This document shows, one piece after another, positions 18,397 to 40,134 of a stretch of DNA of 40,134 bases. The notes below the pieces were generated by a model, which saw nothing but the letters and a program-made list of their open reading frames with translations, did no database searches and had not been told where the DNA came from. The translations under genes were made by a program, and so were the position numbers. The stretch comes from a virus. The stretch lies in UHGV virus genome UHGV-0384302; one strand, written 5' to 3'. Position 1 is the first letter of the stretch, and each line of letters begins with the position of its first letter.

Positions 18397-18427
18397 GAAC
18401 CACCCCCGGAGTTTTTATGATGGCTGC

Positions 18428-21829: not shown

Positions 21830-21830
21830 T

Positions 21831-23474: not shown

Positions 23475-23527
23475 CAATCCAAAATGATATTTTATGAAGC
23501 TAAAGCGTTATATAATACGTCATACGG

Positions 23528-23556: not shown

Positions 23557-23563
23557 AATAGCA

Positions 23564-23758: not shown

Positions 23759-23763
23759 TAACC

Positions 23764-24357
23764 ATGCGTTCCAGTAAAGAACTTGCGGAGCTTTTGTTTT
23801 CCGAATTTGCCAAAGCTGAAAAGGCAGTCAAGGATTACGAGCATTTAACAGCGGAGCTTCCAGTTCCTTCCGTGAATGAATTGCGGTATGCGGGATGCCA
23901 TGCCGTACAAGCGATCAAGCGTGGAATTGATGAAAGCAATGAATGTCAGGAGTTGCTTGATCGAGCCATACGGCATTCCAAAAGAGCTTATTACGATGTC
24001 TTAGAGTACGATGTCATGTTGATGACTAAGAAGGTCGAAGCGTATCAGAGGTTCTATGAGGGCTATGAACGTTTAGCAGCTTCCATTATTCCTCATTATT
24101 GTGACCATATTGCTAAATTAAATGCTTTAGGAGAAATACTCGGAAGTGCTCATGAACTGGATAAAGAGTCCCCAGATTATGTGAAGAGCTGTCAGGAGCA
24201 TATTCAAGTCATGCGTAGTTTTATCAACGATTTTTTGGCCGCCCAAGAACCTCTTTTTTCAGCGATTAAGCATGATCAAAAAGTTATGCGCCTTACTTGG
24301 ATTTTATGGGTATTAGGTCTCGTGATTAGCTATATCCTTGGCCGCTTTTCAGGTTAA
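23764..24357 (+). CDS. C-terminally membrane-anchored protein of unknown function in an AT-rich moron (candidate exclusion/defence cargo)
   Basis: 197 aa. Helical soluble domain with Cys/His residues (CHAVQ...NECQ...HYCDH...CQEH), then a single terminal TM helix MRLTWILWVLGLVISYILGRFSG. Local GC is well below the flanks. Followed by a strong terminator. Confidence 0.5.
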   Translation: MRSSKELAELLFSEFAKAEKAVKDYEHLTAELPVPSVNELRYAGCHAVQAIKRGIDESNECQELLDRAIRHSKRAYYDVLEYDVMLMTKKVEAYQRFYEGYERLAASIIPHYCDHIAKLNALGEILGSAHELDKESPDYVKSCQEHIQVMRSFINDFLAAQEPLFSAIKHDQKVMRLTWILWVLGLVISYILGRFSG

Positions 24358-24370
24358 TTTTCACTATTAA

Positions 24371-24401
24371 AAGCCCCGTCCGGCATTTCACCGGACGGGG
24401 C
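24371..24401. terminator. Bidirectional rho-independent terminator between the convergent moron and capsid genes
   Basis: AGCCCCGTCCGG-catttca-CCGGACGGGGCT is a perfect 12-bp GC-rich stem with a 7-nt loop. It is T-rich on the minus-strand side (TTTAATAG). Confidence 0.75.
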
Positions 24402-24436
24402 TGACTTATGCAATAACCAACTGGGGAGATGGAGGG

Positions 24437-25420
24437 TTAGGCCGCCGCTTCCTTGCAGGGAAGCACAAAGACGGTCTTGTTGTCCAGGCGCGTTGCGCCC
24501 ATGGCAGCCTTGACCGTGATTTGTTCCCGGACGTCCACGTATTCCGGCCTGGGCTCGATGCGGAAGGAGGCGTCTTTCCACACGCCGAATTTGACGCGGC
24601 TCTTGAGCCAGGCGGCACAGAGGCGGTTTCCGTCGGCATCCACAGGCAGCATGTTGGTGACAAAGAACGTGCACTTGAGGAATTTATTGACTTCGCCGGT
24701 CGTAAGGGAAGAGAAGCCATAGTCCTTGTTCTGCGCCTGTTCCCACAGGATCATGTCCATTTCCTGGGTGGGGGAGATGGCTACGACGATTTCGTTCATC
24801 ATGTCACGGGATACGTTCATTGCCCGGTAGCGGCGGCGTAGTTCAGCGATTTTGTCGATGAGCATGCCGGCAGGAGTTTTGGTGCCTTTCGCAGCGTAGT
24901 CCACCGGGATGACCTGGGAGGAGCCGGCGGAGAGGTCCAGCGTTTCCAGTTCGTCTCCGTTTTCCCCGACGTAGTTCGGGGCGAAGATGCCGCCGCAAAC
25001 GCCATCTGCCTGCGTTCTGATTTCAAAGGCGCCGGATTTGCGGCCAACGCCCAGGATGACTTCATCGAAGGTGCGCTGGACGCCCTTGCGCTGTTCGCTC
25101 ATGACGTCGGATGCAGCAAGGTCCAGGGTGTCCATGTCCATCTTGTCATCTTCCGAGAGCGGGATGGAGCTGTAGAATTTGCGCTTCTTGAGATGACGCT
25201 CCCCAAAGTCCAGTTCATCCCATTCGAGCTTGACCTTGCGCCCCGTGTATTCCCGGATGTCCGTTTTGCCGTGGAACGGCAGGGAGACGGATTTGCCGGA
25301 GCAGTTGGGGTGCAGCGTCACGTAGGGTTTGACCAGGGACGTGTCCTGCTGGATTTGCGTGTTCCACTTGGTTTCGTATTTGGTACGAAACATTTTGGTG
25401 ATGTCGGATGTGAGTTCCAT
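24437..25420 (-). CDS. Major capsid protein (putative)
   Basis: 327-aa ORF. It is the only capsid-sized gene in the structural region, lies on its own strand segment with a strong terminator, and sits adjacent to the gp11-like gene. No clear family-specific motif recognised. Confidence 0.5.
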   Translation of the reverse strand: MELTSDITKMFRTKYETKWNTQIQQDTSLVKPYVTLHPNCSGKSVSLPFHGKTDIREYTGRKVKLEWDELDFGERHLKKRKFYSSIPLSEDDKMDMDTLDLAASDVMSEQRKGVQRTFDEVILGVGRKSGAFEIRTQADGVCGGIFAPNYVGENGDELETLDLSAGSSQVIPVDYAAKGTKTPAGMLIDKIAELRRRYRAMNVSRDMMNEIVVAISPTQEMDMILWEQAQNKDYGFSSLTTGEVNKFLKCTFFVTNMLPVDADGNRLCAAWLKSRVKFGVWKDASFRIEPRPEYVDVREQITVKAAMGATRLDNKTVFVLPCKEAAA

Positions 25421-25482
25421 ATCACCCCTTATGGCATAGGAGACAGAGAGGGGCTGATGCTCGTCCTGTTAATTCCACTGCT

Positions 25483-25546
25483 CATGATGTTAAGCGGATG
25501 GATCGTATTAACACCGTGAAACTATCGAACCGCCTGTGGAACTCCT
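25483..25546. promoter_or_regulatory. Second copy of the conserved TTAACACCGTGAAACTATC element with a short inverted repeat, upstream of the plus-strand virion-protein operon
   Basis: catgaTGTTAAgcggatggatcgtaTTAACAccgtgaaactatcgaacc...tatgATGG shares 19 identical nt plus downstream gaacc/tatgatgg/gcatgg blocks with 18376-18430. Confidence 0.45.
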
Positions 25547-26119
25547 ATGATGGGGCGCATGGACAAGGTGACGTTTTTCCAGCAGGCGCTTCAAACCCTT
25601 GGAGACCGCGAGTATAAGCGGGATACGCCCACGGGGAATGCCTGTGATTTGTGGTTCCCGACGGTGATGCACGAAGCTTTGAATTACGGAGCATGGAGTT
25701 TTGCAACCCGCTCTGTTGATTTATCCGCGGAGGAGGACGGAACGTTCCTGCTGCCGGAAGACTGCCTGCGCCCCTTGAAGGTGGATGCCATGCGCTTCCG
25801 CATCGATGGGCGCCGGGTGATTGTAGAGCAGCCCTGGACCAGCCGCGGTGACAAGGCGCTTTTCCTGCGTTACGTTTCCAATGCTCTGGCGAAGGCGGAA
25901 CGGCTGCCGGAGGACCAGCCCTTGTTCGTCCGCGGGGTGACGCTGCTCCTTGCCGCCCGCATAGCGGTAAAGATTACAGGGGACCAGCAGCTTGCCCTGG
26001 CTCTGGATCAGATGGCTTCCGCCACGCTGGCCGACGCCCTGCACAAGGACGCCCTGGCCCAGTACAGCAATGACCAGCACCCGCTGGCCGATATTTTGAA
26101 TTCTTCCATCGTAGGGTAG
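25547..26119 (+). CDS. Tail tubular protein A / adaptor (T7 gp11-like) candidate
   Basis: 190 aa (T7 gp11 is 196 aa). YGAWSFATRS...TFLLPED and LFVRGVTLLLAARIAVKITG resemble gp11 RGWTFNIEE...ITLLPD and [20 protein letters not shown]. First gene of the operon that continues into internal virion proteins. Confidence 0.4.
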   Translation: MMGRMDKVTFFQQALQTLGDREYKRDTPTGNACDLWFPTVMHEALNYGAWSFATRSVDLSAEEDGTFLLPEDCLRPLKVDAMRFRIDGRRVIVEQPWTSRGDKALFLRYVSNALAKAERLPEDQPLFVRGVTLLLAARIAVKITGDQQLALALDQMASATLADALHKDALAQYSNDQHPLADILNSSIVG

Positions 26120-26121
26120 TT

Positions 26122-26817
26122 ATGGGACAGACAATAGGTAATTTCGCGGCTGCTTCCAATTACCGGGCACAGGCTTCCGTAGCCCGTTCCCAGGGGAGGG
26201 CCCAGCAGATGTTTTTCAACAAGCGGGCGCAGAATCTGGAAGCGGAGGCCGTTTCCGATTCCCACCTTGCCGCCCTGAATGCGGGGCGGATGCGCCAGAA
26301 CCAGAGTGCGGCCATGGGAACCGCTCGGGCGCAGCGCGGCGCTTCCGGCCTGACATCCGAGGGTTCCGGCCAGCAGGCGGAGATCGCCATGGCGGATGTG
26401 TTTGAAAACGCCATTGGAGACATGGCTCTTTCCAATGCGATTTCTGATTCCAACAAGCGGTATGCCGCGGAGGTTTCCCGCTACCAGGGAGGGCTTGCCA
26501 TGCAGCAGGCGAATGCCGCCGCTTCCCAGTACAACACGCTCGCCCGGAATGCGACCACCGCGGGATTGGTTCAGGGTATCGGTTCCGTGGGGGCGGGTGC
26601 CCTTGGTTACACGCTGGGTTATCAGCAGACCAATCCCATCACAGGCAAGACGCATACTCTTTCCGGGTGGCAGGGCGCCCAGGCGGCGTTCAAGAGCGCC
26701 TATGACCTTTCCGGAACAGGGTTGTCCTGGATGCCCGGAACCCTTAACAGCGGCTCCCAAAATAGCGGAGCGCATTTGTTTGATTTCCTTTCCTCCATTT
26801 TCCCCTCCAAGCCATGA
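26122..26817 (+). CDS. Internal virion protein (T7 gp14-like) candidate
   Basis: 231-aa Ala/Gln/Ser/Gly-rich protein (MGQTIGNFAAASNYRAQASVARSQGRAQQMF...). Composition and periodicity resemble gp14-type ejection proteins. Located between the gp11-like gene and the large core proteins. Confidence 0.35.
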   Translation: MGQTIGNFAAASNYRAQASVARSQGRAQQMFFNKRAQNLEAEAVSDSHLAALNAGRMRQNQSAAMGTARAQRGASGLTSEGSGQQAEIAMADVFENAIGDMALSNAISDSNKRYAAEVSRYQGGLAMQQANAAASQYNTLARNATTAGLVQGIGSVGAGALGYTLGYQQTNPITGKTHTLSGWQGAQAAFKSAYDLSGTGLSWMPGTLNSGSQNSGAHLFDFLSSIFPSKP

Positions 26818-27158
26818 GACATTGCCCCACCGAAGCCTACACCTACCTCGAAGAACGGGAGCCCGGCCTTTACCACCGGCTTGTCCGCACGACACTTGAA
26901 TGCAACGGCATCGTCCATGCCGCGCCGGATTGTTTCTGTCTGGCGGTTCCCGCGCCGGACGATCCGCGCACCGTCGTCATCCTGTTCCAATGCTCGGAGC
27001 TCCCCGCCCTTTGGAAGCTGGCCAAGATGTACCGCCACCGTTTCGACAAGGTCCGGTTCCGGCGGGATTTCAAAAACCGCTACCCGGAGAGGACGGTTCA
27101 TATTGTCCGATTTATGCGGAAGGCCAGACTGGCCGCCATTGCCTCAAAGAACTCTTAA
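26814..27158 (+). CDS. Hypothetical protein (T7 gp13 position)
   Basis: 114-aa ORF overlapping the upstream stop (ATGA). Basic C-terminus. No recognisable domain. Confidence 0.4.
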   Translation: MRHCPTEAYTYLEEREPGLYHRLVRTTLECNGIVHAAPDCFCLAVPAPDDPRTVVILFQCSELPALWKLAKMYRHRFDKVRFRRDFKNRYPERTVHIVRFMRKARLAAIASKNS

Positions 27159-27170
27159 CTATTCACTTTT

Positions 27171-29708
27171 ATGCCTGAACAACCCATGTACAGCGGCGCC
27201 CGCACCCAGCTTGGAGACGGCGCTTCCCCCTTTGTCATCCCCAATATTGGAATTGACGCTTCACAGCACGCTATCCAGCGCGGCACCGTGACTCTGGATG
27301 AAACTGTGAAGCAGTATTTCAAGATTCAGGACTTTGGAGAGGAGCAACGCCTTGAGTCCGAGGTAAGGGGATTGCAGAGTAAGTTCGACGTGGAGTTCCA
27401 GCGGCGGGCATCCCTGGCTCCCGGCTCTTCCTCGCAGGCTTTATATGATTCCGACGGCACCTTGCGTGAAAGCGTGCTGCAGGACTTGTCCGATGAGTAC
27501 GCGGGAAAGATTGGAGAGCTGCGGGGCGGCTTTGTGCTGCCGGAGAGCCGCATGAAGTCCGATGCCATGCGCCAGCGAGTAGGTGATAGTTTTCTGAACA
27601 GCGCATACCAGAAAGCCGCCCTGCTGGGGATTCAGCGCACGCGGGAACACTTCCAGAACAACTATGACCTCGCCATTCGTAACGGAGACTACTCCGGGGC
27701 CGGGTACGCCATCACGGACGCACGTGACAACGGCGTCATCACCGCAGAAAAAGCGGACATCATGCTCCTTGACCTTCGGGACACTGCTCTCATGGCCCGC
27801 GCCCAAAAGCAAAGCGAAGAAGACCCCGTCGCCTTCTGGAATGAACTGGACGACGACGGCAGCCCTTACGCCGTTCTCCCCTCCTCTAAGCGCATGCAGC
27901 TCCAACGCCTCGCTTCTCTCTCCATGCAGGGATTCAGCCGTTCCTTCGTCAAATCCGTGGAAACAGGCAACGCCAAGGCGGAAAAAATCCCCGGATCCAA
28001 AACCTCAACAGCATCCACAGGCAGCGCGAAAAAAGAAAAGGAAATCTACAACCCGGCTCCCTCCAACATCACCCGCAATCTTCATGCCCTCTGGCGCAAA
28101 TACAACGGAGACTTCAAGGAAGGGCAAGGAAAAATAGACGCCATGCCCTTCCTTGCGGAACAGGGTCGAGCCATGATCACCTCGCCCAATGACGAAACGG
28201 AGGCGGAAATGGTCATCGCCCTCTACAAGCAATTCGGGCAGGGGGAAGACTACGCTAAAGCCATGGTCAAGCAATGGCAGGAAGACCTCGCCCGACCGAA
28301 GGGTCTTGACCCTAAAGTCACCTTATCCCATGCAGCCCAGGTGGGCTACTTCACCAGGGCGGAAGACGCGGCCATCCTTGCTCTTGAACAGGAAAAAGCG
28401 CAGAAACAGGAAGACGATGAATGGACGCCGGAAGATGAAGCCCGGCTCAAGGCCGCCAAAGACCGGAGAAAAGCCGCTGCGGAAAATGCCCAATCCATCC
28501 TCCTCGCCAATCTGGACATCTGGAAAAACGACCAGCAATACAACGGCGGAAAAGAAAAAAAGGAACTCACGGAACTCGAAATTGCCAACCGCCTGTGGGA
28601 CACCATCGCCAACTACACCCCAGGCAACAGGGATCAGGTTCAGCAAGACAGCTACCGACAACAGGAAGCAGTCAACATCACAGCGGCCAGTGACAATTAC
28701 GTTCGGAAGCAGGCCGCAGCCCAAAGCCGCAACCTTGACCTGAAAGCGGAACTGTCCGTTACCAACCGCCTCAATGAAGAAGAACGGAAAGCCGCAGAAA
28801 AAATGATCGCGGACATCAGGCGCAGGGAAGAAGAAGCCTACCGCCGCACGCAGCCCGTGGACTCCATCGTGCCCGTCAGCCGGAACAAAGACCTCCCCGC
28901 CCAATGGGGGGACGACGGACAGGAAGCCGTTCTCTACGTTCCGGAAGGCTGGTACGCGGAAGGAATCACCGTGGGCGTCACCACCCCCGGCCGCCGCTAC
29001 GCGGAAGCGAAAATCGTCTCCAAACCGGACTGCACCTCTCCCACCATGTCTAAAGCCCTTCGCCGCCAGCTTGGCACCATGAACATCAACTACGACCAAA
29101 TTACCGTCACCGCATCCGGCACCAAAGCCAACACTGCCGCCGGAAACACCGCTGCCCTCATCATCGGCAATGAAGCCCGCCGTGACAAACAGGGCAATCT
29201 TTCCATCTACAGACTCCCAGCCGGAGACGGCGGAGGAACGCATGAAATCGCCGGAATCAACAACGGCAGCCACCCGGCGGAATACGCCAAACTGGAAACC
29301 CTCGTCAAAGCGGGCAAACACGCGGAGGCGGAACAGGAAGCCAAACGGTACATCATGCAATATACCCAGCCCGTCGGAAACATCCTTCAAACCGCAGGCG
29401 TCACTTCCTCCGGCATAGACTACTTCCTCCGGGACATGTACTTCAACGGCGGCGAATATGGGGCCGTCCGCGTCATTCATCGCGCCCTCGGAGTGGAAGA
29501 CTCCAAAAAATTCAATGCGGACACCGTGGAAGCCGTAAAAAACTACCTCAAGACCCACACGGAACAGCAGCTCTTGGAACGCCTCAAAAACGCACGGGAA
29601 CGCCTCTACAAATCCATCGCCGCCAACAACCCGGACAAACGGCAATTCCTCTCCGGCTGGCTCAACCGGAACAACCGCGTCTACGGGCAGGCCGCGGAGA
29701 TGGCTTAA
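27171..29708 (+). CDS. Internal virion (ejection) protein with C-terminal GH108-like N-acetylmuramidase plus PG_binding_3 domain (T7 gp15/gp16 class)
   Basis: 845 aa, long charged helical regions. The C-terminal ~170 aa (...DGGGTHEIAGIN...YFLRDMYFNGGEYGAVRVIHRALGVEDSKKFNADTVEAV...RQFLSGWLNRNNRV) match the GH108/DUF847 core (DPGG.T..GI ... NGG...A.R.LQ.A.GV.DG..G..T) and the F..GW.NR ending of the PG-binding domain. Confidence 0.6.
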   Translation: MPEQPMYSGARTQLGDGASPFVIPNIGIDASQHAIQRGTVTLDETVKQYFKIQDFGEEQRLESEVRGLQSKFDVEFQRRASLAPGSSSQALYDSDGTLRESVLQDLSDEYAGKIGELRGGFVLPESRMKSDAMRQRVGDSFLNSAYQKAALLGIQRTREHFQNNYDLAIRNGDYSGAGYAITDARDNGVITAEKADIMLLDLRDTALMARAQKQSEEDPVAFWNELDDDGSPYAVLPSSKRMQLQRLASLSMQGFSRSFVKSVETGNAKAEKIPGSKTSTASTGSAKKEKEIYNPAPSNITRNLHALWRKYNGDFKEGQGKIDAMPFLAEQGRAMITSPNDETEAEMVIALYKQFGQGEDYAKAMVKQWQEDLARPKGLDPKVTLSHAAQVGYFTRAEDAAILALEQEKAQKQEDDEWTPEDEARLKAAKDRRKAAAENAQSILLANLDIWKNDQQYNGGKEKKELTELEIANRLWDTIANYTPGNRDQVQQDSYRQQEAVNITAASDNYVRKQAAAQSRNLDLKAELSVTNRLNEEERKAAEKMIADIRRREEEAYRRTQPVDSIVPVSRNKDLPAQWGDDGQEAVLYVPEGWYAEGITVGVTTPGRRYAEAKIVSKPDCTSPTMSKALRRQLGTMNINYDQITVTASGTKANTAAGNTAALIIGNEARRDKQGNLSIYRLPAGDGGGTHEIAGINNGSHPAEYAKLETLVKAGKHAEAEQEAKRYIMQYTQPVGNILQTAGVTSSGIDYFLRDMYFNGGEYGAVRVIHRALGVEDSKKFNADTVEAVKNYLKTHTEQQLLERLKNARERLYKSIAANNPDKRQFLSGWLNRNNRVYGQAAEMA

Positions 29709-29729
29709 CCCTCACCACCTCTTTCCATC

Positions 29730-32700
29730 ATGGACTACTTGCAGGAAAACACCTTCTTCATCCCGTCCCCCGCGCCCGCGCCTGAACAACTCGCCTCCCC
29801 GGACTATGAGCAGCAGCGGAAACAGGACATGGACTACCTCTCCAACTACCTCCTCTCCGGCCAGTACCCGGAACACCGCGCCTTGGCGGAACAGGCCCAC
29901 GGCCATGACCCCTATGCCCATGCGCCGGAACAAGAACGCAAATGCTTCGTTGGGCGTAAAGCCTGCGGCGTCCTCCTCGGCAACGACCAGGTCCCGGACA
30001 TGTACTTCCGCCAGCAAAACCTCCCCATCCCGGATGGGGCGGACACGCGGGAAAAAATGTACATGGCCGTCTATGACCACCTTGACGGCGTCGTCAAGCA
30101 GGCCAAGCAGAAACAGGTGGAAGAACAAAAAGCCCTGGAACAATACGGCCAGCAGTTATTGGGGCGCATTGACCGCGCCTGCAAAGGCAGCGGAGAACAA
30201 TGGACGCCCAAAGACATAGACATGATGGGCCGCGCCGGAATCACACCGGACATCATCAACCGCGTCCGCGCCGCCTATGCCAAACTCCCCGTCGGCAGTT
30301 TCATCCTCGATGATGCCGATGCGGCAAACGTCATGACGGCAGCCGGACTCAACAAAGACGACCTCACGCCGGATGACAAAAAAGTGGAAGACATCCTCAT
30401 GAGCCTGTGGGGCAAGGCCATCTATGACAACTACGGAGCCAACATCGACAGACAATATGAAAACCCCGTCGCTCAATATGCCTACGAAAGCATCAAGCCC
30501 ATCCACAACCTCTACTACTCCACGCTCTCCGGCGCAATGGGCGTCTTGGAAAACCTCCGCAATGTAGACGCGGACGTCCCCTCCTTCATGACGCCGGGGG
30601 ACCGCATGGCATACGACCATATCCCCTTTGACAACAAAAACCCCTTCCTCTCGGCGGAAGAAATGCGGCATGACAAGGGACTCCTCCGCACCATCGACTT
30701 CCGGGCAAAAATGAAAAACGTCCGCAAGGCGGCCCAGCAGGCATACACCGAAGGGAGGCAAACCTGGGGAATCAACAAATTCGCCGTCACCCTTGGCGAC
30801 ATGGTCGGTCAATCCGTCCCCAACGCCATACCCTACTTTGGCGTGTACAGCCTCCTCAAAGGATCCGGCACGCAACGCTATGAAGAAGGCGTTGCCCTCG
30901 GACTATCCCGTGAAGAAAACGTCAAACGTGCATCCCTCTTCGGGGCGGCGGACACCCTGGAAGAAAAAATCGGCATGGGCGTCCTTGGCAAAGTCCCCGT
31001 GCTGGGGCGTCTCCTGAACGCCGGACTCAACAAAACGGGCCTCCCGTACAACTCCCTCCGCGCCAAATACCTCGCCAGTGAAACCGCCCAAATATGGGGT
31101 AACACCGCGGCGGGCGTGCTGGAAGAAGGCGTTGCGGAACCCATCGTCGGGGGCACTACCCGCGCTCTCATGAGCAACTTCCTTGACGATGATCGGGGCA
31201 AAACCTCCCTCTCCGCCATCCCCGGCGCCATCCTCCAAAACTTTGAAGGCTACCAGGGCCTCGCCCTTGCCTTCTACTCCCGCGGCTTCGTCAAACTCGC
31301 GGAACCCCAAATCCGGGAAAACGTCAAGCACTTCGCGGAATCCCTGGACGGATTCACCGCTCTCGGCGGTTCGGAATCCGGCTACCTTCGCGCCTTGGAA
31401 ATCAAAGACACCGACGCCCGCAACGACTTCATCGCCGAACACCTTAAAACCGAATGGGCAAACAACCCGGAACAGGCAGCCCGCCGGGCGGAACAGGGAA
31501 ACGCCGCCCTCCTCGGTACACAGGAAATCGCCCAGCTCCGCGAACTCGAATCCTTCCGCGCCTTGCAGGAGCGCGGCGTCATTCCCCGCTTTGAGCCAGC
31601 GCAGGAAACGGGCAAATACCGTGTCTACCTTAACGCGGAAACAGCGGAAACCCGCCGGAAGACCCAACCTTCGGAGGAAGGAATTTCCGCGGAGAACCCC
31701 GTGGCGGAACAAACGCGGCAGGGGCAGGACTACGCCCTCATGACGGAAGACCAGCTCAACACCCTCCTCACCCTCTCCATTGGAGAACGTGAGCGGGACA
31801 CCATCCTGTGGGCGCAAAACCTCCTCGCGGCGGAAAACGTCGTGGACTACCTCGAACAACAGGGATGGAAAACGGAAAACATCGGCCAGACGGAAACCAC
31901 AGCCACCCTCCGCACGCTCGCCCGGCAGGCTACCGCCACCGTCCGCCTGCTGGAAACCTCCGGCATCACCCGGCAGGAAGCCCTTGCCTCGGTCAACCCG
32001 GACATCTCGGAACATGCCAGCCTCCAAAGCATCATCACCGCCTACTCCGGGTCCAAGGGCAGGGCGGCCACCGCCCGCCGCCGCGGGGAACAAACCTCCT
32101 TTGCCTCGAATGCCTATGTCATCCGCCAGCAGGATCCGGTCAACGGAGGCTTCCAGCAAATACTGCGCTTCTCCCGTGGAGAAGCCACGGTGGAAAACCT
32201 GTGGGAAGAAACCATGGAACAGGCCGCCATCAACTGGTGCGCCCAGGAAAACCTCTCCCCGTCCACCTTCGGCAGCCAGCTACAGGACATGCAGCGCGCC
32301 GTCAACCAGCTCTACGGAGAAGAAGGGGGCGTTCAATTCATCGGCCTTGACGTCGTTCCCACCTCCGGCGACGTCGTGGAAGCCCTCTCCCTCATCGGAC
32401 GTTCCCGCCTCATGCACGACGTGGTAGCTGGCACCAGCAGCCTCCCCTCGTGGATCCAGAAACTTGTCCGCTTCGTCTCCTCCTTCCTCGAACAATTCCG
32501 TGCCAAGGCGGAACTCGGCCACGCCATCGCCAAACTGGAATCATCCGGCCAGCTCACCCCGGAAATGCAAAACCTCATCAACGCCATGACCGGGGCCGTG
32601 GACTCCATCCACGCGCGGGACATCCGGCAGGAAGCGGACATCGTCACCGCCGTGGAAAGCTCCATCGCGGAACATGAAGCCGCCTTCACCCGTGCGGGCA

Positions 32701-35700
32701 CCTCCCAAACGAAAACGCTGGAAGACATCCGGGCGGAACTTGACGACGTTGCCGCCCAGCAGGAACAGGCGGAACCTCCAACCACGGAAACCCCGCCGGA
32801 TCCCGCCCAGCCGGAACCGGACGCCAATGCCTTCATCGCCCCTGACGGCACAGTCCTTGCCCCCGGACAGGACAGCCGGAAAGACGCTGCCTCTGATAGC
32901 CCCTTCATCGGCGGCAACTACATCCAGATCGGGGAAGCCCGCCTCGGAGCCGTCCCCACGGCCTCCATCCTCCATGCGGAAGACCTCGCTCAAACCAAAC
33001 GCAATGCGGACGCCAGCGGCCTCACCAAGCCCCTCACTGGAAAATTCAAAAGGGAAACCGCCCCCGTCTACCTCCTCCATCGCAACAACGGAGAACTTCA
33101 TATCTTCTCCGGCAGGCATAAACTCGCCCTAGCCAGAGAAAACGGCATCGACCGTGTCGCCGCCTACGTCTATGAAGAAGACGCTGCCCACACCCCGGAA
33201 TGGGCGCGGTATGAAGACATCCGCCTCAACATCCTCGATGAACAGGCCACCATCACGGAAGTAGCCCTCTACGCCCGCCATCTCAAGGACGCCAGCCCGG
33301 AAGCGGACGTCGTTGCAGACATGACTCACGAGGGACTGGTACGCATCCACCCCCAGCCGTGGCGGCGTACCCCCACCCAAATAGGCGCATTCATCGGGGC
33401 CAACGCCAGCCCTGACTTGCTCGACCGCCTCAAAAACCCGGACAACTCCCTCATGGATGAAAAGGCGGCCTACACCATCTGCCAGCTCACCACGGACGCG
33501 ACCGTCCAGCAATGGGCCGGGGGACAAATCCAGCAGGGGCAGTCCATTGACGACATCGTCGCAGGCATCCAGCAGCGGGACGCCGCCGTCTCCGGCGGTC
33601 AAATCGAATACGACATGTTCGGCAACGCCATCTTCAACAACGCCGAATTTGACCACGTCACCCGCTATGTCAACGCCTGCAAGGCGGAAATCTCCCGCGT
33701 GGAAGCCCTCCTCAAAAGCAAAAACCGCATCGCCAAAGACCAGCCGCTTGCCCGCCAGCTCGGCCTCTCCATTGACCAGCACACGGACGTTGCTTCCATC
33801 CGCAAGCAAATCGCGTCCCTCAAAATCGCCTACAACAACATCGGCGTCCACCCGGAAATCACCGCAGCGGGCCGCCTCTGGAAAGAAGGGGAACCCGTTC
33901 ACCCGCTCAAGGACATCCCGGAACTCCGTCTTGAAAACGTAGAGAAAACGGACACGGAACCCAGGCCCTTCGATGACGGGGAAATGCTCTTCTCCGCCAG
34001 CCTCACCCCTATCCGGAAATCCGCCGCAAACGTCCAGCCGGAAGGCAGCCATGCCCCAAGAATCAACGTATTTTGGCATGGTGTGGAGGAAAAAGACTAC
34101 CGCTCTCTTCCTGTGGAAGAACAAGAACGCCTTGCCAGCCGTGGCCTCGATGAACTCTACCCCATGGCCGAGGCCGTCATGCAGGACTTTGACACCATCG
34201 TCCGCGGCATCGGGGAACGCCTCGGACTGCGCGTCATGATGCGGAAAACTCTCAAAGGCCGGGCACGTGCCTTACAAAAAACCGTGGGAGACAATTACGG
34301 CGATGCCGGAAAACTCCTCGATGTTTTCGGGGGCACCCTCATCATGCCGGACAGTGCGGACTTCTCCCAAGTCATTTCAGAAGTCAGGGAATCTGGCATG
34401 ACTATCGCCCGCATTAAAAATGGCTACAAGGCCCACGATCCCTACGGTTATGCGGACATCAAGCTCAACGTCCAAATGCCCAACGGATTCATCGGAGAAA
34501 TCATCCTCATTGAAGAACACATGATGCGGATGAAAGAAGGCCCCGGTCATAAAATTTACGAAGTGGGCCGCAACCTTCAAAACGAACTCAACCAGAACAA
34601 AGACAACCCGGACTACGGGGAAAAACGCCGTCAGCTCGTCACTGGTTATGTAGAAACCCTGCAACAACTCTCCCACGCCTACTACGGTAATCAGGGGCGC
34701 GAACCAATCAGGGAAGCGGAACAGGAAGCACGGGAAGCTTATTCAAAATTGCATGGCTGGGCATTCTCCAATGCCTCTTCCAGTGAGGAAAGCGGAATCG
34801 TTCCATTAGCTGGATTGGGGGAAGGAATGTACTTTGCTTCAACCAATCTGGCAGACCCATCTTTGGCAACCTTCACCTGGTATGTTTTCCCGGACTTGTC
34901 GGAAGCCCAGGAAGCGTCTCCGTCTCCTCTAGTCCAGAACTCGACCAGTTCCACATCTGATGCTCTCAATAACATATCCACGGATAATGTAGCATCGTCC
35001 CTGAACAATGTCAAATCAGCCCTTGAACAAGCGGGGGAACGCGCATCCTCCCCATCCCCTGAACAGGACGGCCCCGGCGTCAGCTTCTCCCTTGCTCAAG
35101 CCTCCGTCATTTCAAGGCTCATTCTTGCTCCTCGCGCCAACGAAGCCAAAGCCCGTTCCCTCATGCGTGGCATCGACGAAGCCATGAACCGCTGGAACAT
35201 TGCTGCATCCGTGGACATCACCCATGACAGCGCGGCCCGCACCTTCGGGGAACTCAACTCCATCCTCGCGGAAATCCAGCGAGTCCTGCCGGACAACTAC
35301 AAAATCAACATGCGCCCCTACCTCAACTTCGGAGCAGCCTACGCCCGCATGCTGGAAACCGGACGCATCCGCTCCTATGGCAAACTCTCCCCGGAACAAA
35401 AAAACACCCTTGCGGCGGAACTTCAAACCCTCATGGACTCGCCGGACGTTCTCACCGCCATCCGCGGGGAAGTGGTTGATCAAATCTCCATTCGTCAGGA
35501 AACAACAGGAAGGGGAGGCCCGGAATACGCGCAGGCATACCGCACCCAACAGGAAGACATCGTCCGCCAGCTCGCCGAAGGAAGGCTCAACACCCTCCTT
35601 ACCTCCATCATGACCGACGTTCGCGGGCAGCTCGAACAATACCTCAAGGACGAAAGCGTTGCCAAGGTACTTGACCGCATCGCCCGTCTCATGCCCAAAA

Positions 35701-38432
35701 AGAAAGACAACGGAAAATACGGTAAAGGCTCCCTCCCGGCGGACGCCTACCGCACCCTCGGCCAATACCTTGCCATGCTCGATGCGGATGCCTCCGCCGT
35801 AGAAGCGGAAACAGCCAGACTGGAAGCACTTATCCGGGACGCCTCCCTCAACCAGACGGAAGCGGCGGAAGGGGAAACCATATCCATCCCCTACGAATAT
35901 GCGGGAAGAAAAGAAAACCTCACCCTTGACCAGTTGGAAAGCAAACTCGCGGACTGGCAAACCTTCGGAAACTTGGCGGACATGAACCTCGATGAAACCC
36001 GCGCCGCCATGGAAGCCATCATGACCTACATCCAGACCAACCGCACGGCCTGGGTGCAGAAAAACCAGCAGGAAGCATGGCAGAACGAAAAACTTGCCTA
36101 CGACATCTCCGGCTCCATCCGGCAGCATGTCACCGTAGATGAACAAGCCGTCCGCGACGCCAACGAAAACGCGGACAGCTCCCGCGTGGAATGGGCGCGT
36201 GCCTGGTTCTCCGGCCTGCAATCCTTCTCTCAAATGCTCGAAAGCCTCTCCGCCATCGACGGCATGAAGGAACTCTCCCAATACGGCATCTCGGAAATAG
36301 CCAAAGCCAACGTCTCTCTCAACACGCGGGAAAACAACCATGCCGCCGCCTTTGCGCAAATCATTCGGGAATCTGCCGGACTGCGGACGAAACGCGACAT
36401 AGAACGATGGATTCTTGACGCCAAGCTCACCCGCGACACTGGGGCCGTCACCGCCCCTGTCAGGGAAAAAACCGTCACCCTCGACATCCGGACCGCACAG
36501 GAATACATCGACCTCATCGAAGCCGACGACAGGGAAGGCTTTGAAGCCAAGCGGCAGCACATCATGGAAACCGCCCGCCGCCAGGGCATCCGCCCCGAAC
36601 GCCTCGGCCTCATCTCGGAAATGGACATCCCCGCTCTCATGAATGAACTCGCCGCCCATCCCAGGGCCGGGAAAATCACCATCACCAGCCGCATCCTTGA
36701 CAAAAAGGGAACAGCCCGCCCGCTGCGCCTCTCCAAAGCGCAGGCCATGTACCAAATCCTCCTCTACGAACAGGACAGGTACAAGCCCAACTTCGAGCGG
36801 CATGGCTACACTGGGCAAACCATGCAGGCCCTCTACCGCTACGTCGGACAGGACGGCCTCGCCGTTGCCTACGGCCTCCGCGACTACATCAACCAATGCG
36901 GCATAGAACTCGCAGACGTCTTTGAAAAACTCACCGGAGTCCCGTTCCCCAAAGAAGAAAAATACTTCCGCGCCAAATTCAACCACCACGAAGGCGACGC
37001 CAAAACCGCCGTCATCGGAGAAGGCAACAACATCATGGGGCATAAATACTCCATGCTCATCACCCGTAAAAAACACAACCTCGGCCTTGACCTCTCCGCG
37101 GACGTCTTCACCGTCGCCAACGCCTCCCTGGCGGAAACGGACAACTACATCTGCACCAAACACATCACATCCAAATTCCGCGGCGTCCTCTCCCATGGTT
37201 ACGCGGCGGACGCCCTCAAGGTCAAAATGGGAGCGCAGCGATACCGCCAGCTCGTCACGTGGCTTGACCTCATCGACGGGGCGGGCACCCTCGAAGCAGC
37301 CCAGCTCATGGCCCACTCCAAATTCGTAGGCCGCATGCAGGGAGCCAAGGCAAACGCCCTCCTTGCCTACAACCTCCTCACCTGCATCAAGCAGACCTCC
37401 GCCATCCTCCACCCGCTCGCCTCTGGTAAAATCGGCCTCGGAGAACTCATGAAAGAATACTCCCTCATGCTCTCCGGCAACAGCCACTTCACCTTCGCGG
37501 ACATGATGCGGACAGACGCCTTCCAATCCCGTTTCAGAAAAGAACCCGTCATCCGGGAAATCCTCAATTACGGCGCAGACCAGCACTTCGGCTATGGTAA
37601 AAGAATCGCCATGTCCGGAATGGTCCCTCTGGAAAAAATGGACGTATGGAGCAACGCCGTTTCCCATACCGCCCTTGCAAACGCCGTCATCCGCAAACTG
37701 GAAAAGGAAAACGCCGCCCGCATTCGCAATGGGGAAGAGCCAATGACCACCGCAGACATGGAGCAAATCGCCCTCGACGAAGTCCGCCAATCCCTCGAAC
37801 TCGCAGCCCAGCCCACGCGCACCGCGCAGAAATCGCAGCTCCAGGCCATGGGCGGCACCTTCGTCCGCCTCTGGACATTCATGGGCAGCGAAGCCATCAA
37901 CAAATTCGGCAACCTCGTCACCTTCGCCCAAAAAGGCCAGTGGGGTAAGCTCGCTGCCGCATGGGCCAGCCTCTCCCTGTGGGAACAAACCATGGTAACG
38001 CTCTGGATGCTCCTCATGAACCCGCCGGGAGATAAAGACAAGGACAAGGAAAAATGGTGGAAAACGCAGGCTGTGGCTCTCCCCTCCGCCATGCTCGGAT
38101 CCGTTCCTGTCGTGGGAGCAACCATTCAGACAGCCCTTCAAACCTTCGGCCTTGCTCCCTACTACGGCAACTACGGATCCCAAATCATCCCCGCCGGAAC
38201 AGCCGTCTCCAAAATCAAAAAGGCCACGAAGAAAAAAGCCACTTGGCAGGACACCTTCAACGCCTCCCTCGCCGTCCTCCAATGCCTCGCCATCGGCGGC
38301 GGCGTCTTCTCGGACTCCCGCTCCAAGCCAGTTGCGGAAACCGCCTCCGCCCTCATTGGACTATCCGCCGCGGCCAACATCCCAAAAGTCGCCGTTAAGG
38401 CAACCGAAGAACCCAAAAAGAAAAGGCGGTAA
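29730..38432 (+). CDS. Giant (2900 aa) polyvalent internal virion / ejection protein with ParB/Srx-like domain, RelA/SpoT-like nucleotidyltransferase-like domain and C-terminal hydrophobic helices
   Basis: Single uninterrupted 8.7-kb ORF following the GH108-bearing protein. ParB-like block ...ETAPVYLLHRNNGELHIFSGRHKLALARENGIDRVAAYVYEE (about 32900-33190). RSH-like block RVMMRKTLKGRARALQK...DVFGGTLIMPDSADFSQVI...NGYKAHDPYGYADIKLNVQMPNGFIGEIILIEEHMMRM (about 34200-34570). C-terminal hydrophobic segments (37960-38320). Confidence 0.65.
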   Translation: MDYLQENTFFIPSPAPAPEQLASPDYEQQRKQDMDYLSNYLLSGQYPEHRALAEQAHGHDPYAHAPEQERKCFVGRKACGVLLGNDQVPDMYFRQQNLPIPDGADTREKMYMAVYDHLDGVVKQAKQKQVEEQKALEQYGQQLLGRIDRACKGSGEQWTPKDIDMMGRAGITPDIINRVRAAYAKLPVGSFILDDADAANVMTAAGLNKDDLTPDDKKVEDILMSLWGKAIYDNYGANIDRQYENPVAQYAYESIKPIHNLYYSTLSGAMGVLENLRNVDADVPSFMTPGDRMAYDHIPFDNKNPFLSAEEMRHDKGLLRTIDFRAKMKNVRKAAQQAYTEGRQTWGINKFAVTLGDMVGQSVPNAIPYFGVYSLLKGSGTQRYEEGVALGLSREENVKRASLFGAADTLEEKIGMGVLGKVPVLGRLLNAGLNKTGLPYNSLRAKYLASETAQIWGNTAAGVLEEGVAEPIVGGTTRALMSNFLDDDRGKTSLSAIPGAILQNFEGYQGLALAFYSRGFVKLAEPQIRENVKHFAESLDGFTALGGSESGYLRALEIKDTDARNDFIAEHLKTEWANNPEQAARRAEQGNAALLGTQEIAQLRELESFRALQERGVIPRFEPAQETGKYRVYLNAETAETRRKTQPSEEGISAENPVAEQTRQGQDYALMTEDQLNTLLTLSIGERERDTILWAQNLLAAENVVDYLEQQGWKTENIGQTETTATLRTLARQATATVRLLETSGITRQEALASVNPDISEHASLQSIITAYSGSKGRAATARRRGEQTSFASNAYVIRQQDPVNGGFQQILRFSRGEATVENLWEETMEQAAINWCAQENLSPSTFGSQLQDMQRAVNQLYGEEGGVQFIGLDVVPTSGDVVEALSLIGRSRLMHDVVAGTSSLPSWIQKLVRFVSSFLEQFRAKAELGHAIAKLESSGQLTPEMQNLINAMTGAVDSIHARDIRQEADIVTAVESSIAEHEAAFTRAGTSQTKTLEDIRAELDDVAAQQEQAEPPTTETPPDPAQPEPDANAFIAPDGTVLAPGQDSRKDAASDSPFIGGNYIQIGEARLGAVPTASILHAEDLAQTKRNADASGLTKPLTGKFKRETAPVYLLHRNNGELHIFSGRHKLALARENGIDRVAAYVYEEDAAHTPEWARYEDIRLNILDEQATITEVALYARHLKDASPEADVVADMTHEGLVRIHPQPWRRTPTQIGAFIGANASPDLLDRLKNPDNSLMDEKAAYTICQLTTDATVQQWAGGQIQQGQSIDDIVAGIQQRDAAVSGGQIEYDMFGNAIFNNAEFDHVTRYVNACKAEISRVEALLKSKNRIAKDQPLARQLGLSIDQHTDVASIRKQIASLKIAYNNIGVHPEITAAGRLWKEGEPVHPLKDIPELRLENVEKTDTEPRPFDDGEMLFSASLTPIRKSAANVQPEGSHAPRINVFWHGVEEKDYRSLPVEEQERLASRGLDELYPMAEAVMQDFDTIVRGIGERLGLRVMMRKTLKGRARALQKTVGDNYGDAGKLLDVFGGTLIMPDSADFSQVISEVRESGMTIARIKNGYKAHDPYGYADIKLNVQMPNGFIGEIILIEEHMMRMKEGPGHKIYEVGRNLQNELNQNKDNPDYGEKRRQLVTGYVETLQQLSHAYYGNQGREPIREAEQEAREAYSKLHGWAFSNASSSEESGIVPLAGLGEGMYFASTNLADPSLATFTWYVFPDLSEAQEASPSPLVQNSTSSTSDALNNISTDNVASSLNNVKSALEQAGERASSPSPEQDGPGVSFSLAQASVISRLILAPRANEAKARSLMRGIDEAMNRWNIAASVDITHDSAARTFGELNSILAEIQRVLPDNYKINMRPYLNFGAAYARMLETGRIRSYGKLSPEQKNTLAAELQTLMDSPDVLTAIRGEVVDQISIRQETTGRGGPEYAQAYRTQQEDIVRQLAEGRLNTLLTSIMTDVRGQLEQYLKDESVAKVLDRIARLMPKKKDNGKYGKGSLPADAYRTLGQYLAMLDADASAVEAETARLEALIRDASLNQTEAAEGETISIPYEYAGRKENLTLDQLESKLADWQTFGNLADMNLDETRAAMEAIMTYIQTNRTAWVQKNQQEAWQNEKLAYDISGSIRQHVTVDEQAVRDANENADSSRVEWARAWFSGLQSFSQMLESLSAIDGMKELSQYGISEIAKANVSLNTRENNHAAAFAQIIRESAGLRTKRDIERWILDAKLTRDTGAVTAPVREKTVTLDIRTAQEYIDLIEADDREGFEAKRQHIMETARRQGIRPERLGLISEMDIPALMNELAAHPRAGKITITSRILDKKGTARPLRLSKAQAMYQILLYEQDRYKPNFERHGYTGQTMQALYRYVGQDGLAVAYGLRDYINQCGIELADVFEKLTGVPFPKEEKYFRAKFNHHEGDAKTAVIGEGNNIMGHKYSMLITRKKHNLGLDLSADVFTVANASLAETDNYICTKHITSKFRGVLSHGYAADALKVKMGAQRYRQLVTWLDLIDGAGTLEAAQLMAHSKFVGRMQGAKANALLAYNLLTCIKQTSAILHPLASGKIGLGELMKEYSLMLSGNSHFTFADMMRTDAFQSRFRKEPVIREILNYGADQHFGYGKRIAMSGMVPLEKMDVWSNAVSHTALANAVIRKLEKENAARIRNGEEPMTTADMEQIALDEVRQSLELAAQPTRTAQKSQLQAMGGTFVRLWTFMGSEAINKFGNLVTFAQKGQWGKLAAAWASLSLWEQTMVTLWMLLMNPPGDKDKDKEKWWKTQAVALPSAMLGSVPVVGATIQTALQTFGLAPYYGNYGSQIIPAGTAVSKIKKATKKKATWQDTFNASLAVLQCLAIGGGVFSDSRSKPVAETASALIGLSAAANIPKVAVKATEEPKKKRR

Positions 38433-38578
38433 AAAGTATCGCCGCGGCTCCGGAGAACCGCGACGACCTTTGGACACTTGCCTGAAACGAGGCAAGGCGT
38501 TCAGCATATCACCTCCTTTCACGTTCTCGGAAGAACTTCCTTGTGTCATACAAAAAAGAAACAGAAGAAAAACCTTGC

Positions 38579-38601
38579 TTTAGTATCGTGACGATACTAA
38601 A
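38579..38601. promoter_or_regulatory. Perfect 23-bp palindrome (11+1+11) in the gap before the right-end genes; candidate operator for a dimeric regulator
   Basis: TTTAGTATCGT-g-ACGATACTAAA, AT-rich, in a non-coding gap of about 250 bp (38433-38682). No adjacent U-run on the plus strand. Confidence 0.4.
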
Positions 38602-38682
38602 TTAACCATGTCGGCAGGAGATTGGACACCTCCTCCCGATGGGTTCCGGCCTCCGGGACTCAACGCCTGAAACGAAAAAACA

Positions 38683-39024
38683 ATGAACACCGAAATCAAA
38701 AATGAAAACGTCGTGGCTCTGCTTCATGCGGTAGCCGTTTCCTCCGGTCTTGTCAAAGAAGGCTTGCCATGGTGCAAGCGCGTAAAAGTCGCTCCCGGTT
38801 CGATCTCCTTCAACATGTTCGGGCCTACGGAAGACGCCAATGCTTGGCAGGTCTCCTTTCATCTCTCCTCCCTTCGTTCCAGAAAGAAGGTAGATGAACT
38901 CCTGCACAACCTCGCCATTGCCTCCATGGACTTCAAACTCTGCGACGGCTACGAACTCCGCTTCTGCAAGGCGGACAAATACGTCAGCATCATTATCCCG
39001 GACAATGAAAAATATGCAGCCTGA
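38683..39024 (+). CDS. Hypothetical protein
   Basis: 113-aa ORF with a good start context (aacaATGaac). No motif recognised. Confidence 0.45.
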   Translation: MNTEIKNENVVALLHAVAVSSGLVKEGLPWCKRVKVAPGSISFNMFGPTEDANAWQVSFHLSSLRSRKKVDELLHNLAIASMDFKLCDGYELRFCKADKYVSIIIPDNEKYAA

Positions 39025-39994
39025 ACCGAACGCCAAACAAGGAAACAAAGCCATGAACGAATACATCAACGACATTTCCCAGCAAACCGCGGAACGCGCC
39101 TTCAACGGAACCAGCTTCTCCCCTGACAGACGCGGGGAAAGCCTGCGGCGCGAATACGCAAATGACCTCGCCTCCTTCCAATCCGTCTTGGAAAAATACA
39201 TGAAGGGGGAAGACGAAGACAAAATCAACGAAGAATTCGAGCGTTTCCGCTCCGGCCTCAAGCAAAGATACCTTGCCTACTGCTCTTCACACTCCCGCTG
39301 CATGTCCGCCTTCATCGTCGGCCCGGCCCGATTTCCATCGGCACGCATGCAAAAATACTCCGGCTGGGCAGACAACAAAATGAGGGAAATCAGCTCCTTC
39401 ATCGAACGGGCGGAAAAATCCGTCAAAAGGAGATACTTCAAAGACCCCAACGGCCCCATCAAATCCAGTGACCCGGATGCCGTGGAGCGGCTGGAAGCCA
39501 AGCTTTCTGCTTGCCGCAAAACGCAGGAAACCATGAAAGCCGCAAACGCCGTCATCCGCAAAGCCAAGGGAGACAAGGATAAGGCTATGGCCGGACTCAT
39601 TGAAATGGGATTAAGTGAACAGACCGCCGCCAAAATCCTCACGCCGGACTACTGCGGCAGAATCGGCTTTTCGACTTACACTCTCGCTGGCAACAACGCG
39701 GAAATAAGAAGACTCGAAGGCCGCCTCCGTAAAATCAAAACCGCCAAAGAAACCACCCCGGAAAAAATAGAAACGCAAACCGGAATCATCATTGAAAAAT
39801 GCCCGGAAGAGAATAGAATAAGGCTCTACTTCCCGGACAAGCCGGACGAAACTGTCAGGGGCAGCCTCAAGGCAAACGGATTCCGCTGGTCGCCTCGCCT
39901 CAAGGCATGGCAGTCCTACATCAACTGGAAGACGGAACACTACGTCCGGAAAGAAATTGTCGCATCACAAACTGGTGCGCTCATTGAAACATGA
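39014..39994 (+). CDS. Hypothetical protein (start ambiguous: 39005, 39014 or 39053; the track's 38894 start overlaps the upstream gene)
   Basis: About 320 aa, charged/helical (MNEYINDISQQTAERAFNGTSFSPDRRGESLRREYANDLASFQSVLEKYMKGEDEDKINEEFERFRSGLKQRY...). No confident family assignment. Confidence 0.45.
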   Translation: MQPEPNAKQGNKAMNEYINDISQQTAERAFNGTSFSPDRRGESLRREYANDLASFQSVLEKYMKGEDEDKINEEFERFRSGLKQRYLAYCSSHSRCMSAFIVGPARFPSARMQKYSGWADNKMREISSFIERAEKSVKRRYFKDPNGPIKSSDPDAVERLEAKLSACRKTQETMKAANAVIRKAKGDKDKAMAGLIEMGLSEQTAAKILTPDYCGRIGFSTYTLAGNNAEIRRLEGRLRKIKTAKETTPEKIETQTGIIIEKCPEENRIRLYFPDKPDETVRGSLKANGFRWSPRLKAWQSYINWKTEHYVRKEIVASQTGALIET

Positions 39995-40134
39995 CCACTC
40001 CTGAACAATTCATTGACTGGGTAAAACAAACCCTCAACATCAGGAAAACCCCCGCCGTTGAAAAAGCGGTTGGGGTGCTTGGCGTTACGCGCCTCACCAT
40101 CTTCCGCTGGCTCAACGGAACCATGCCCCCCAGC
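39991..40134 (+). CDS. HTH DNA-binding protein, 3'-truncated by the window end
   Basis: MTTPEQFIDWVKQTLNIRKTPAVEKAVGVLGVTRLTIFRWLNG is a classic HTH (AlpA/Cro-like) arrangement. ATG overlaps the previous stop (ATGA). Confidence 0.4.
   Translation, partial: MTTPEQFIDWVKQTLNIRKTPAVEKAVGVLGVTRLTIFRWLNGTMPPS

Follow-up and report, generated by a model that had tools for sequence, protein, structure and literature searches.

The virus genome UHGV-0384302, a stretch of 40,134 nucleotides referred to here as the window, contains a single 8.7-kb open reading frame (ORF) at 29730..38432 on the plus strand, which begins with ATG and encodes a protein of 2900 amino acids (aa), hereafter the giant. Sequence comparison and structure prediction show the giant to be a phage polyvalent protein of carrier and cargo design, in which a ParB-fold module and a RelA/SpoT-homologue (RSH) synthetase domain of the Tas1/Apk1 toxin lineage stand between long N-terminal and C-terminal blocks. 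The giant is placed in the polyvalent class because its carrier is homologous to giant proteins that possess signature polyvalent families. More specifically, Pfam searches of 14 homologues sharing the C-terminal scaffold found ART-PolyVal, LPD3 and the zincin DUF6782 in four proteins each and PBECR5 in two, together with RadC, ddrB-ParB, LPD1, LPD5 and MuF_C. The cargo position is taken by LPD3 and ART-PolyVal in one of these homologues (P0134) and by PBECR5, zincin and MuF_C in another (P0311). With two modules of its own and homologues of this kind, the giant fits the multi-module, polyvalent protein that an earlier reading of the sequence alone had proposed.

Architecture of the giant protein and its modules

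A search of 5.8 billion proteins returned 158 matches to the giant, and the best 120 clusters listed are all 92-100% identical to it and 2900-3274 aa long. Wherever the listed matches are named, their source is Akkermansia or A. muciniphila, and they derive from hundreds of independent contigs of up to 2.9 Mb. Because intact, near-identical copies occur in more than 150 independent Akkermansia assemblies, the ORF is not a mis-assembly of several genes, and the claim of the sequence-only reading that it is single and intact holds. A codon comparison across 12 related loci gave ratios of nonsynonymous to synonymous substitution (dN/dS, or omega) of 0.03-0.3 across every region of the giant, which indicates purifying selection.

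Homologues were collected by an exhaustive HMMER search with aa 1200-2399 against 1.84 billion representative sequences (1105 hits, some 70 of them giants), and the architecture was read from local phmmer comparisons of the full giant with the best 150 of these. Five parts can be distinguished, namely an N-terminal region, the ParB-fold module, a variable slot, a Ser/Thr-rich junction and the C-terminal scaffold (Table 1). The scaffold is found at the C-terminus of all homologous giants, always as the terminal element, in proteins of 2200-6081 aa. Pfam, PHROGs and NCBIfam yielded no significant match in the giant, searched whole or as ten 400-aa tiles, and the modules were therefore established by other routes. 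The tiled domain scan that the sequence-only reading had recommended was thus blank, while two enzyme-type modules came to light outside it. The N-terminal and C-terminal blocks are without a Pfam or PDB relative, and a search of the PDB with the scaffold profile was likewise blank; some 2100 aa of conserved carrier, occurring in phage proteins of 2000-6000 aa, is without any annotation. A tblastn search of 50,697 phage records with the giant matched the ParB module alone, a homologue search with the scaffold profile (word prefilter) recovered five proteins, and a genome scan with the giant-family alignment found loci from Akkermansiaceae only. Near the end of the scaffold, two hydrophobic segments (aa 2741-2763 and aa 2779-2803) form a pair conserved in the family; this pair is the sole hint of membrane insertion and is a candidate membrane hairpin.

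Structure prediction was needed for the ParB module because its sequence profiles are weak (E = 0.12-0.19). Searched against PDB sequences, the module profile found SbnI at E = 0.19 and otherwise only an unrelated DUF507 match, and among the homologues of the module Pfam detected ParB_N in a single protein, at E = 0.12. The PF02195 ParB_N and PF18763 ddrB-ParB models do not match the window's ParB module; three homologues (P0272, P0288 and P0306) have a precomputed PF02195 match. The AlphaFold2 (AF2) model of aa 1040-1400, built from a 41-sequence alignment, has a mean predicted local distance difference test score (pLDDT) of 81.6 and a predicted template modelling score (pTM) of 0.70. The top 30 Foldseek matches to this model in the PDB are all ParB, Noc, KorB, Spo0J, PadC or sulfiredoxin (Srx), with E about 1e-4 and probability 1.0, and they span about 220 columns that comprise the ParB N-domain and the helical domain that follows it. 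The best BFVD matches are fragments of entries described as 'large polyvalent protein' from phages (E = 1e-9). The residues G1128-R1129-H1130, within SGRHKLALA, correspond to the Arg-containing phosphate-binding motif (GERRxR or GxHR) and are invariant in A7 and nearly invariant in A9. The predicted model thus confirms, at the level of the fold, the ParB-like segment suggested earlier. By analogy with the ParB literature, the module most likely carries out nucleoside triphosphate (NTP)-dependent DNA binding or nicking.

The ParB module is present in most of the homologous giants (best 150 of 1105). Within cultured phages its sole match, at 25% identity (E = 1e-13), is to aa 476-762 of the 'N6 methylase' of Vibrio phage 1.211.A and its relatives. 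The 2715-aa protein NVP1211A_14 of this P22-like phage (MG592581) shares the ParB-plus-helical module of about 300 aa, and its gene lies after the ejection-protein-slot genes and before the tailspikes. In contrast to this resemblance, no other region of the two proteins is similar, and the cargo of NVP1211A_14 is a DNA methylase rather than an RSH domain.

The second module was recognized directly, with aa 1469-1605 matching the Tas1/Apk1 toxin domain (6ox6) at E = 6.8e-7 in a single-sequence phmmer search. A clade profile built from the window segment and 20 small homologues found Tas1 at E = 7.7e-26, well ahead of RelSeq (2.7e-6), RelP (6e-6) and RelA (about 1e-6). All seven clade-invariant residues are kept, among them K1509, R1513, K1517, D1531 and E1590; the LKxRxRAxxK motif, the Asp and the G-E-I motif are in place, and in the alignment E1590 falls on the catalytic Glu of EIQIRT. 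Judged by these sequence relationships, the RSH-like segment noticed earlier belongs to the Tas1/Apk1 toxin lineage and is a pyrophosphokinase domain of the RelA/SpoT type. The RSH module has a dN/dS of 0.06-0.18, and the two modules together have an omega of 0.03-0.18. Tas1/Apk1, a type VI secretion system (T6SS) effector of Pseudomonas aeruginosa, is the best solved relative, with which the module shares LKxRxRAxxK, D...T, GY and G-E-I. Unlike the giant, Tas1/Apk1 is delivered by the T6SS via a PAAR domain, is paired with a binder, Tis1, as its immunity protein, and possesses R330 and Q384.

The slot between the ParB module and the scaffold is variable, covering aa ~1400-1781 here and 300-3400 aa in other giants. 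A cargo cassette at aa ~1401-1781 (window 33930..35072) is mosaic among near-identical phages. In three of these (L020, L021 and L033) the flanks are 99% identical, with dS of 0.015-0.035, whereas the cassette is 85-87% identical, with dS of 0.28-0.66. The dS of the cassette, far above that of its flanks, indicates that the cassette has been exchanged by recombination. The junction at aa ~1771-1782 (window ~35040..35075) is a recombination hot spot, and variants of 3230-3274 aa (P0099, P0108 and P0078) contain an extra module of about 340 aa at this point, before the scaffold. This extra module has the motifs ALHASP..F, GWGLYFAE, GIRYADG and YNYVIF and is frequent in other giants just before the scaffold. 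Its identification as an ADP-ribosyltransferase (ART), considered on the basis of the H..., GxYF and YNYVIF motifs, was rejected, as it has no Pfam ART-PolyVal match and cannot be aligned with the part of P0134 that holds ART-PolyVal. In another variant, P0122, a C block 95% identical to that of the giant follows an unrelated N-terminal part of 1820 aa, and P0121 is without the ParB core (aa 1031-1173). Overall, ParB belongs to the conserved core of the family, and RSH is one exchangeable cargo among others.

The pairing of ParB and RSH modules had been described as unusual by the sequence-only reading, a description that does not survive comparison with other phages. Iyer et al. 2017 (PMC5512222) list both RelA/SpoT and ParB-superfamily domains as phage-type polyvalent domains and report DdrB-ParB with RelA-SpoT in Helicobacter prophage polyvalent proteins. 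In addition, four divergent giants (L035-L038), with RSH domains 45-49% identical to that of the window, combine ParB, RSH and scaffold, and the pairing therefore recurs. The giant resembles the polyvalent proteins of that study in being a very large multi-domain polypeptide encoded among virion genes, in its rampant domain shuffling and in carrying at least two unrelated effector-type domains within one ORF.

The three-gene cassette, the hydrolase gene and the phage genome

The giant is the last and largest member of a cassette that adjoins the tail adaptor gene and consists of a 114-aa ORF, an 845-aa protein and the giant itself. The same order, with a peptidoglycan-binding protein of about 824-845 aa in the middle, is kept in divergent relatives (L036-L038). 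This conserved synteny is the strongest argument for a joint role of the three proteins resembling that of T7 gp14, gp15 and gp16. The resemblance to gp14-gp15-gp16 of T7 and phiKMV lies in three consecutive genes of rising size beside the adaptor gene of a T7-type podovirus, one of which has a peptidoglycan-directed domain. The N4 virion RNA polymerase (vRNAP) offers a parallel of layout, with an N-terminal injection region, a central enzyme and a C-terminal encapsidation region. From this gene context, packaging of the giant in the virion is predicted.

In the 845-aa protein, PG_binding_3 covers aa 766-834 (nt 29466-29672), with E = 2.8e-7, or 4e-8 when the C-terminal fragment is searched by itself. 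The protein had been called lysozyme-bearing from sequence alone, a label that is not borne out: PG_binding_3 is the only domain detected, with no lysozyme catalytic domain found in the protein or its homologues. A GH108 lysozyme was looked for in the same proteins and not detected. Just upstream of PG_binding_3, the stretch NEARRD...GDGGGTHEIAGIN resembles the GH108 motif EGGY...DxGGxTxxGI and serves as a lead only.

Downstream of the giant, split between the two ends of the window, lies a gene for a putative alarmone hydrolase that the sequence-only reading overlooked, as it did the circular permutation of the window. The gene, join(39991..40134, 1..552), encodes 231 aa, with a helix-turn-helix (HTH) ahead of an HD_4 domain whose match (E = 6e-16) passes the Pfam cut-off. 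The motifs AHxGQxR (AHEGQTR), PYxxH (PYYTH), HDxxED (LHDTMED) and DxxxN are intact and align to Mesh1 and Rel. The protein matches the hydrolase domains of Mesh1 and Rel (2e-13), PaSAH (1e-8) and Aph1, a hydrolase of (p)ppApp (5.8e-7). The gene is present in all of the approximately 20 contigs of this phage lineage, which count as a single lineage, and is missing from nine loci in which the giant has no RSH domain. Of these nine, four are sister phages with the same repressor/DnaB module, in which the repressor directly follows the giant and the hydrolase and its neighbouring genes are absent. In a further locus (L040), an HD gene adjoins that of a small RSH from the same clade. A functional link between the hydrolase and the RSH module is assigned roughly even odds or somewhat better.

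The 250-nt intergenic region that follows the giant (38433..38682) contains both a GC-rich hairpin and a perfect palindrome (Table 1); the palindrome is a candidate operator to which the hydrolase may bind through its HTH. Promoter and terminator scans of the window showed no excess over shuffled controls.

The window represents one whole phage genome of about 40.1 kb in circularly permuted form. The permutation is evident because the ORF that begins at 39991 leaves the end of the window and resumes in frame at position 1, continuing to 552, and because related loci cross the junction unbroken (four independent loci). This Akkermansia phage is a temperate podovirus whose portal, adaptor and nozzle are of the T7 type. 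TerS, TerL, portal (PF12236), capsid, adaptor and nozzle are all encoded with the giant in one 40-kb genome, the nozzle gene lying apart from the adaptor and cassette and preceding TerL. IMG/VR holds 10 contigs of the same phage, of 20-42 kb, and the phage is a common A. muciniphila prophage, found on hundreds of gut contigs. A putative attP lies near 10850 (window 10740..10900), beside the integrase gene. Two prophage copies (L024 and L025) are 97-99.8% identical to the window up to 10850 and past this point run into host genes (ChlI, rhomboid, DAO and Iso_dh). ARAGORN found no tRNA genes in the entire window.

Table 1. Features of the phage genome, in window coordinates
Feature	Position	Strand	Remarks
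HTH-HD_4 hydrolase, remainder	1..552	+	HD_4 part
orf149	613..1062		
S24 repressor	1070..1888	-	
Early genes, including DnaB	7368..8681		Position is that of DnaB
TerS	9017..9565		
Integrase	9516..10739	-	
Portal, T7-type	12121..13833	-	PF12236
Amidase_3	14066..14656	-	
Tail protein	15893..18313	-	806 aa
Nozzle	18428..21829		1133 aa; match to 8ck1_A, E = 9e-50
TerL	21831..23474		
Capsid	24437..25420	-	
Tail adaptor/connector (gp11-like)	25547..26119	+	Match to 8ck1_E, E = 9e-4; followed by ORFs of 231 and 114 aa, the 845-aa protein and the giant
114-aa ORF	26814..27158	+	Cassette member 5' of the 845-aa gene
845-aa protein	27171..29708	+	Syntenic partner of the giant; 21-nt gap to the giant
Giant: N-terminal region	29787..32819	+	aa ~20-1030; weakly conserved, common to many homologous giants
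Giant: ParB-fold module	32919..33920	+	aa 1064-1397; ParB/Srx N-domain and helical domain
Giant: RSH synthetase domain, Tas1/Apk1-like	34095..34679	+	aa 1456-1650
Giant: RSH helical extension and Ser/Thr-rich linker	34680..35072	+	aa 1651-1781; cargo junction at aa ~1771-1782
Giant: C-terminal scaffold	35073..38429	+	aa 1782-2900; 1119 aa
Giant: hydrophobic segment pair	37950..38138	+	Charged loop between the segments
GC-rich hairpin	38438..38467		13 bp; immediately 3' of the giant's stop codon
Perfect palindrome	38581..38599		TAGTATCG-TGA-CGATACTA; once in the window
113-aa ORF			Follows the giant; then DUF3560 protein and split hydrolase ORF
DUF3560 protein	38894..39994		Between giant and hydrolase; E = 1.6e-6; labelled primase-like in PHROGs
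HTH-HD_4 hydrolase, start	39991..40134	+	48 codons (HTH part)

Several further features of the genome were observed. The genes from portal through 806-aa tail protein (window 10900..18313) form a minus-strand block, and in a related prophage (L001, 21051..28698) this portal-tail block is inverted and directly follows the hydrolase gene, a large rearrangement between relatives. The slot between TerL and capsid is variable, being occupied by a 197-aa plus-strand ORF in the window (23764..24357) and by a minus-strand DUF3800 gene in L001 (3762..4463). The G+C content is 47-50% in the early/lysogeny module (1..10000) versus 55-62% in the late region (11000..40000), a contrast that fits mosaic ancestry of the two halves of the genome. 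Sister Akkermansia phages (L024, 1..2845; L047, L048, L050 and L051) possess a near-identical repressor/DnaB/TerS/integrase module and are without the hydrolase block. The giants of these sister phages differ from that of the window, having 3725-4026 aa with LPD5 and LPD1 and resembling it in the C-terminal scaffold only.

Mechanism, competing explanations and significance

A mechanism can be proposed by analogy with T7 gp14-16, N4 vRNAP, the P1 Dar proteins and MuF-toxin fusions. All three proteins of the cassette would be enclosed in the capsid and leave it either with the DNA or before it. The 845-aa protein would engage peptidoglycan, and the scaffold would serve for encapsidation and for passage through the envelope, perhaps via the conserved hydrophobic hairpin. 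In this way, two effector modules would enter the cell ahead of all phage gene expression. The ParB-fold module may then bind or nick incoming or host DNA in an NTP-dependent manner, and the RSH module may pyrophosphorylate an adenine or guanine nucleotide, or possibly the 3' end of tRNA, causing an abrupt damping of host metabolism or defence. The HTH-HD_4 hydrolase would subsequently clear the RSH product, guarding the producing cell during late synthesis as well as lysogens and resetting the newly infected cell, as Aph1 does for Apk2. Taken as a whole, from packaged carrier and cargo to ejection and reset by the hydrolase, this mechanism is given a little better than an even chance of being correct.

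The closest known system to the pair formed by the RSH module and the hydrolase is Apk2-Aph1, a MuF-fused (p)ppApp synthetase with a downstream hydrolase as immunity, from a temperate phage of Bacteroides caccae (Ahmad et al. 2023, PMC10083569). Both are found in temperate phages of the gut, both place a Tas1-lineage synthetase on a presumed capsid-internal carrier, and in both an HD-type alarmone hydrolase is encoded downstream on the same strand. The two differ in the carrier, which here is a 2900-aa scaffold protein in the ejection-protein slot of a podovirus rather than MuF, in the N-terminal HTH of the hydrolase, and in the synthetase, which here belongs to a subclade with altered ATP-contact residues.

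A number of observations weigh against the polyvalent carrier-cargo reading and its mechanism. The sequence-only reading had placed the giant in the slot of T7 gp15/gp16, and the position stands, in that the cassette lies by the adaptor gene of a T7-type podovirus; the likeness does not extend to the proteins. Searches of PHROGs and of the PDB, by sequence and by profile, found no similarity of the giant to gp15, gp16 or any ejection or core protein, Foldseek found no fold match of the scaffold to such proteins (a weak test on a low-confidence model), and the giant is twice as large as gp16. For the scaffold, the AF2 model is unreliable (pLDDT 49) because its alignment contained ten sequences, and with this model Foldseek gave non-specific helical matches only, with E above 0.4. 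Among the Pfam families searched for in the giant itself, MPTase, ART-PolyVal, LPD, PBECR, MuF and ddrB-ParB gave no match, nor did RelA_SpoT or ParB_N. Thus, unlike the described polyvalent proteins, the giant matches no Pfam polyvalent family and is without the hub metallopeptidase, its N-terminal and C-terminal scaffolds (about 2100 aa) have no counterpart in Pfam or the PDB, and its ParB module is missed by the ddrB-ParB model.

Other observations of this kind concern the hydrolase and the RSH product. The hydrolase gene lies 1.56 kb downstream of the giant on the same strand, with two genes between, and its product is nearer to Mesh1 and Rel than to Aph1. No HD_4 gene is present in the 3-4.7 kb downstream flank of two RSH-bearing giants (L035 and L037), and in two others (L036 and L038) an integrase gene directly follows the giant; because these divergent RSH-bearing giants have no HD_4 gene nearby, the hydrolase link is not general. 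Of the five residues that contact ATP in Apk1, which include R330 and Q384 (PMC12691689), these two are replaced in the giant by G1534 and I1592, and Tas1-related exported synthetases make (p)ppGpp or both alarmones. In view of these replacements and of relatives that make (p)ppGpp, (p)ppApp is no more than a candidate product of the RSH module. The same G/I state occurs in 21 of 87 related segments, a subclade enriched in giant proteins. Separately, an unrelated ORF of at least 4815 aa (L023, 3332..17776), which runs to the end of a 42-kb IMG/VR contig, contains a G/I-subclade RSH domain 37% identical to that of the window and has no similarity to the window's carrier.

Three alternative explanations bear on this evidence. 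Rather than a means of taking over the host, the locus may encode a phage-borne inter-bacterial toxin and its immunity, in which particles released from lysogens would poison non-lysogenic Akkermansia and a constitutively made hydrolase would protect the lysogens. Tas1/Apk1 and Apk2 kill bacteria, and each toxin has a partner immunity gene; Ahmad et al. (PMC10083569) raise the same alternative for MuF toxins. The hydrolase gene, moreover, adjoins the lysogeny switch (S24 repressor) and comes after the hairpin and the 250-nt intergenic region, so that it could be transcribed apart from the late operon, and the mosaic cargo cassette between near-identical phages is of the type seen in arms-race loci. 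This explanation is nevertheless considered unlikely, in that a toxin that kills its recipient would abort the phage's own infection and RSH-bearing relatives without a nearby hydrolase exist.

A still less probable explanation is that the RSH domain is a toxSAS enzyme that pyrophosphorylates the 3'-CCA of tRNA, in the manner of CapRel or FaRel2, or acts on a novel substrate, with the hydrolase reversing the modification. Substrate switches are documented within toxSAS enzymes, and the subclade of the giant replaces two ATP/nucleotide contacts that are conserved from RelSeq to Tas1 (DVFGGT and GEIILIE); set against this, the best structural relative by sequence is Tas1 itself (the clade-profile match given above), and the CapRel and FaRel2 structures are not among the profile matches at E<=1. 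The last explanation, that the giant serves chiefly as a structural core protein or 'molecular ruler' whose enzyme-like modules are decayed, non-catalytic passengers, draws on the helical N-terminal and C-terminal blocks (about 2100 of the 2900 aa) with no enzymatic signature, on the natural variant without a ParB core and on the failure of Pfam models on both modules, but it is very unlikely given the strong purifying selection on both modules, the family-invariant residues kept in both and the confident AF2 fold of the ParB module.

New here are an unannotated carrier, a divergent RSH subclade, a set of natural variants in a major gut commensal and a nearby hydrolase gene. The authors of the Apk2-Aph1 study (PMC10083569) regard carriage in the particle, injection and the benefit of toxin fusions to the phage as open questions. 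The present locus is a tractable case for the question of toxin fusions, as it provides natural variants that differ in the cargo cassette alone as well as sister phages that have the same backbone without the synthetase and the hydrolase.

A more far-reaching proposal, which we consider doubtful, is that the N-terminal and C-terminal blocks constitute an undescribed encapsidation and ejection carrier, a plug-in delivery bus of temperate Akkermansiaceae podoviruses, through which a G/I-type Tas1 relative with a product other than (p)ppApp would be injected and later cancelled by the HTH-hydrolase. If true, this would amount to a timed switch, effector first and antidote second, for the takeover of a keystone gut commensal.

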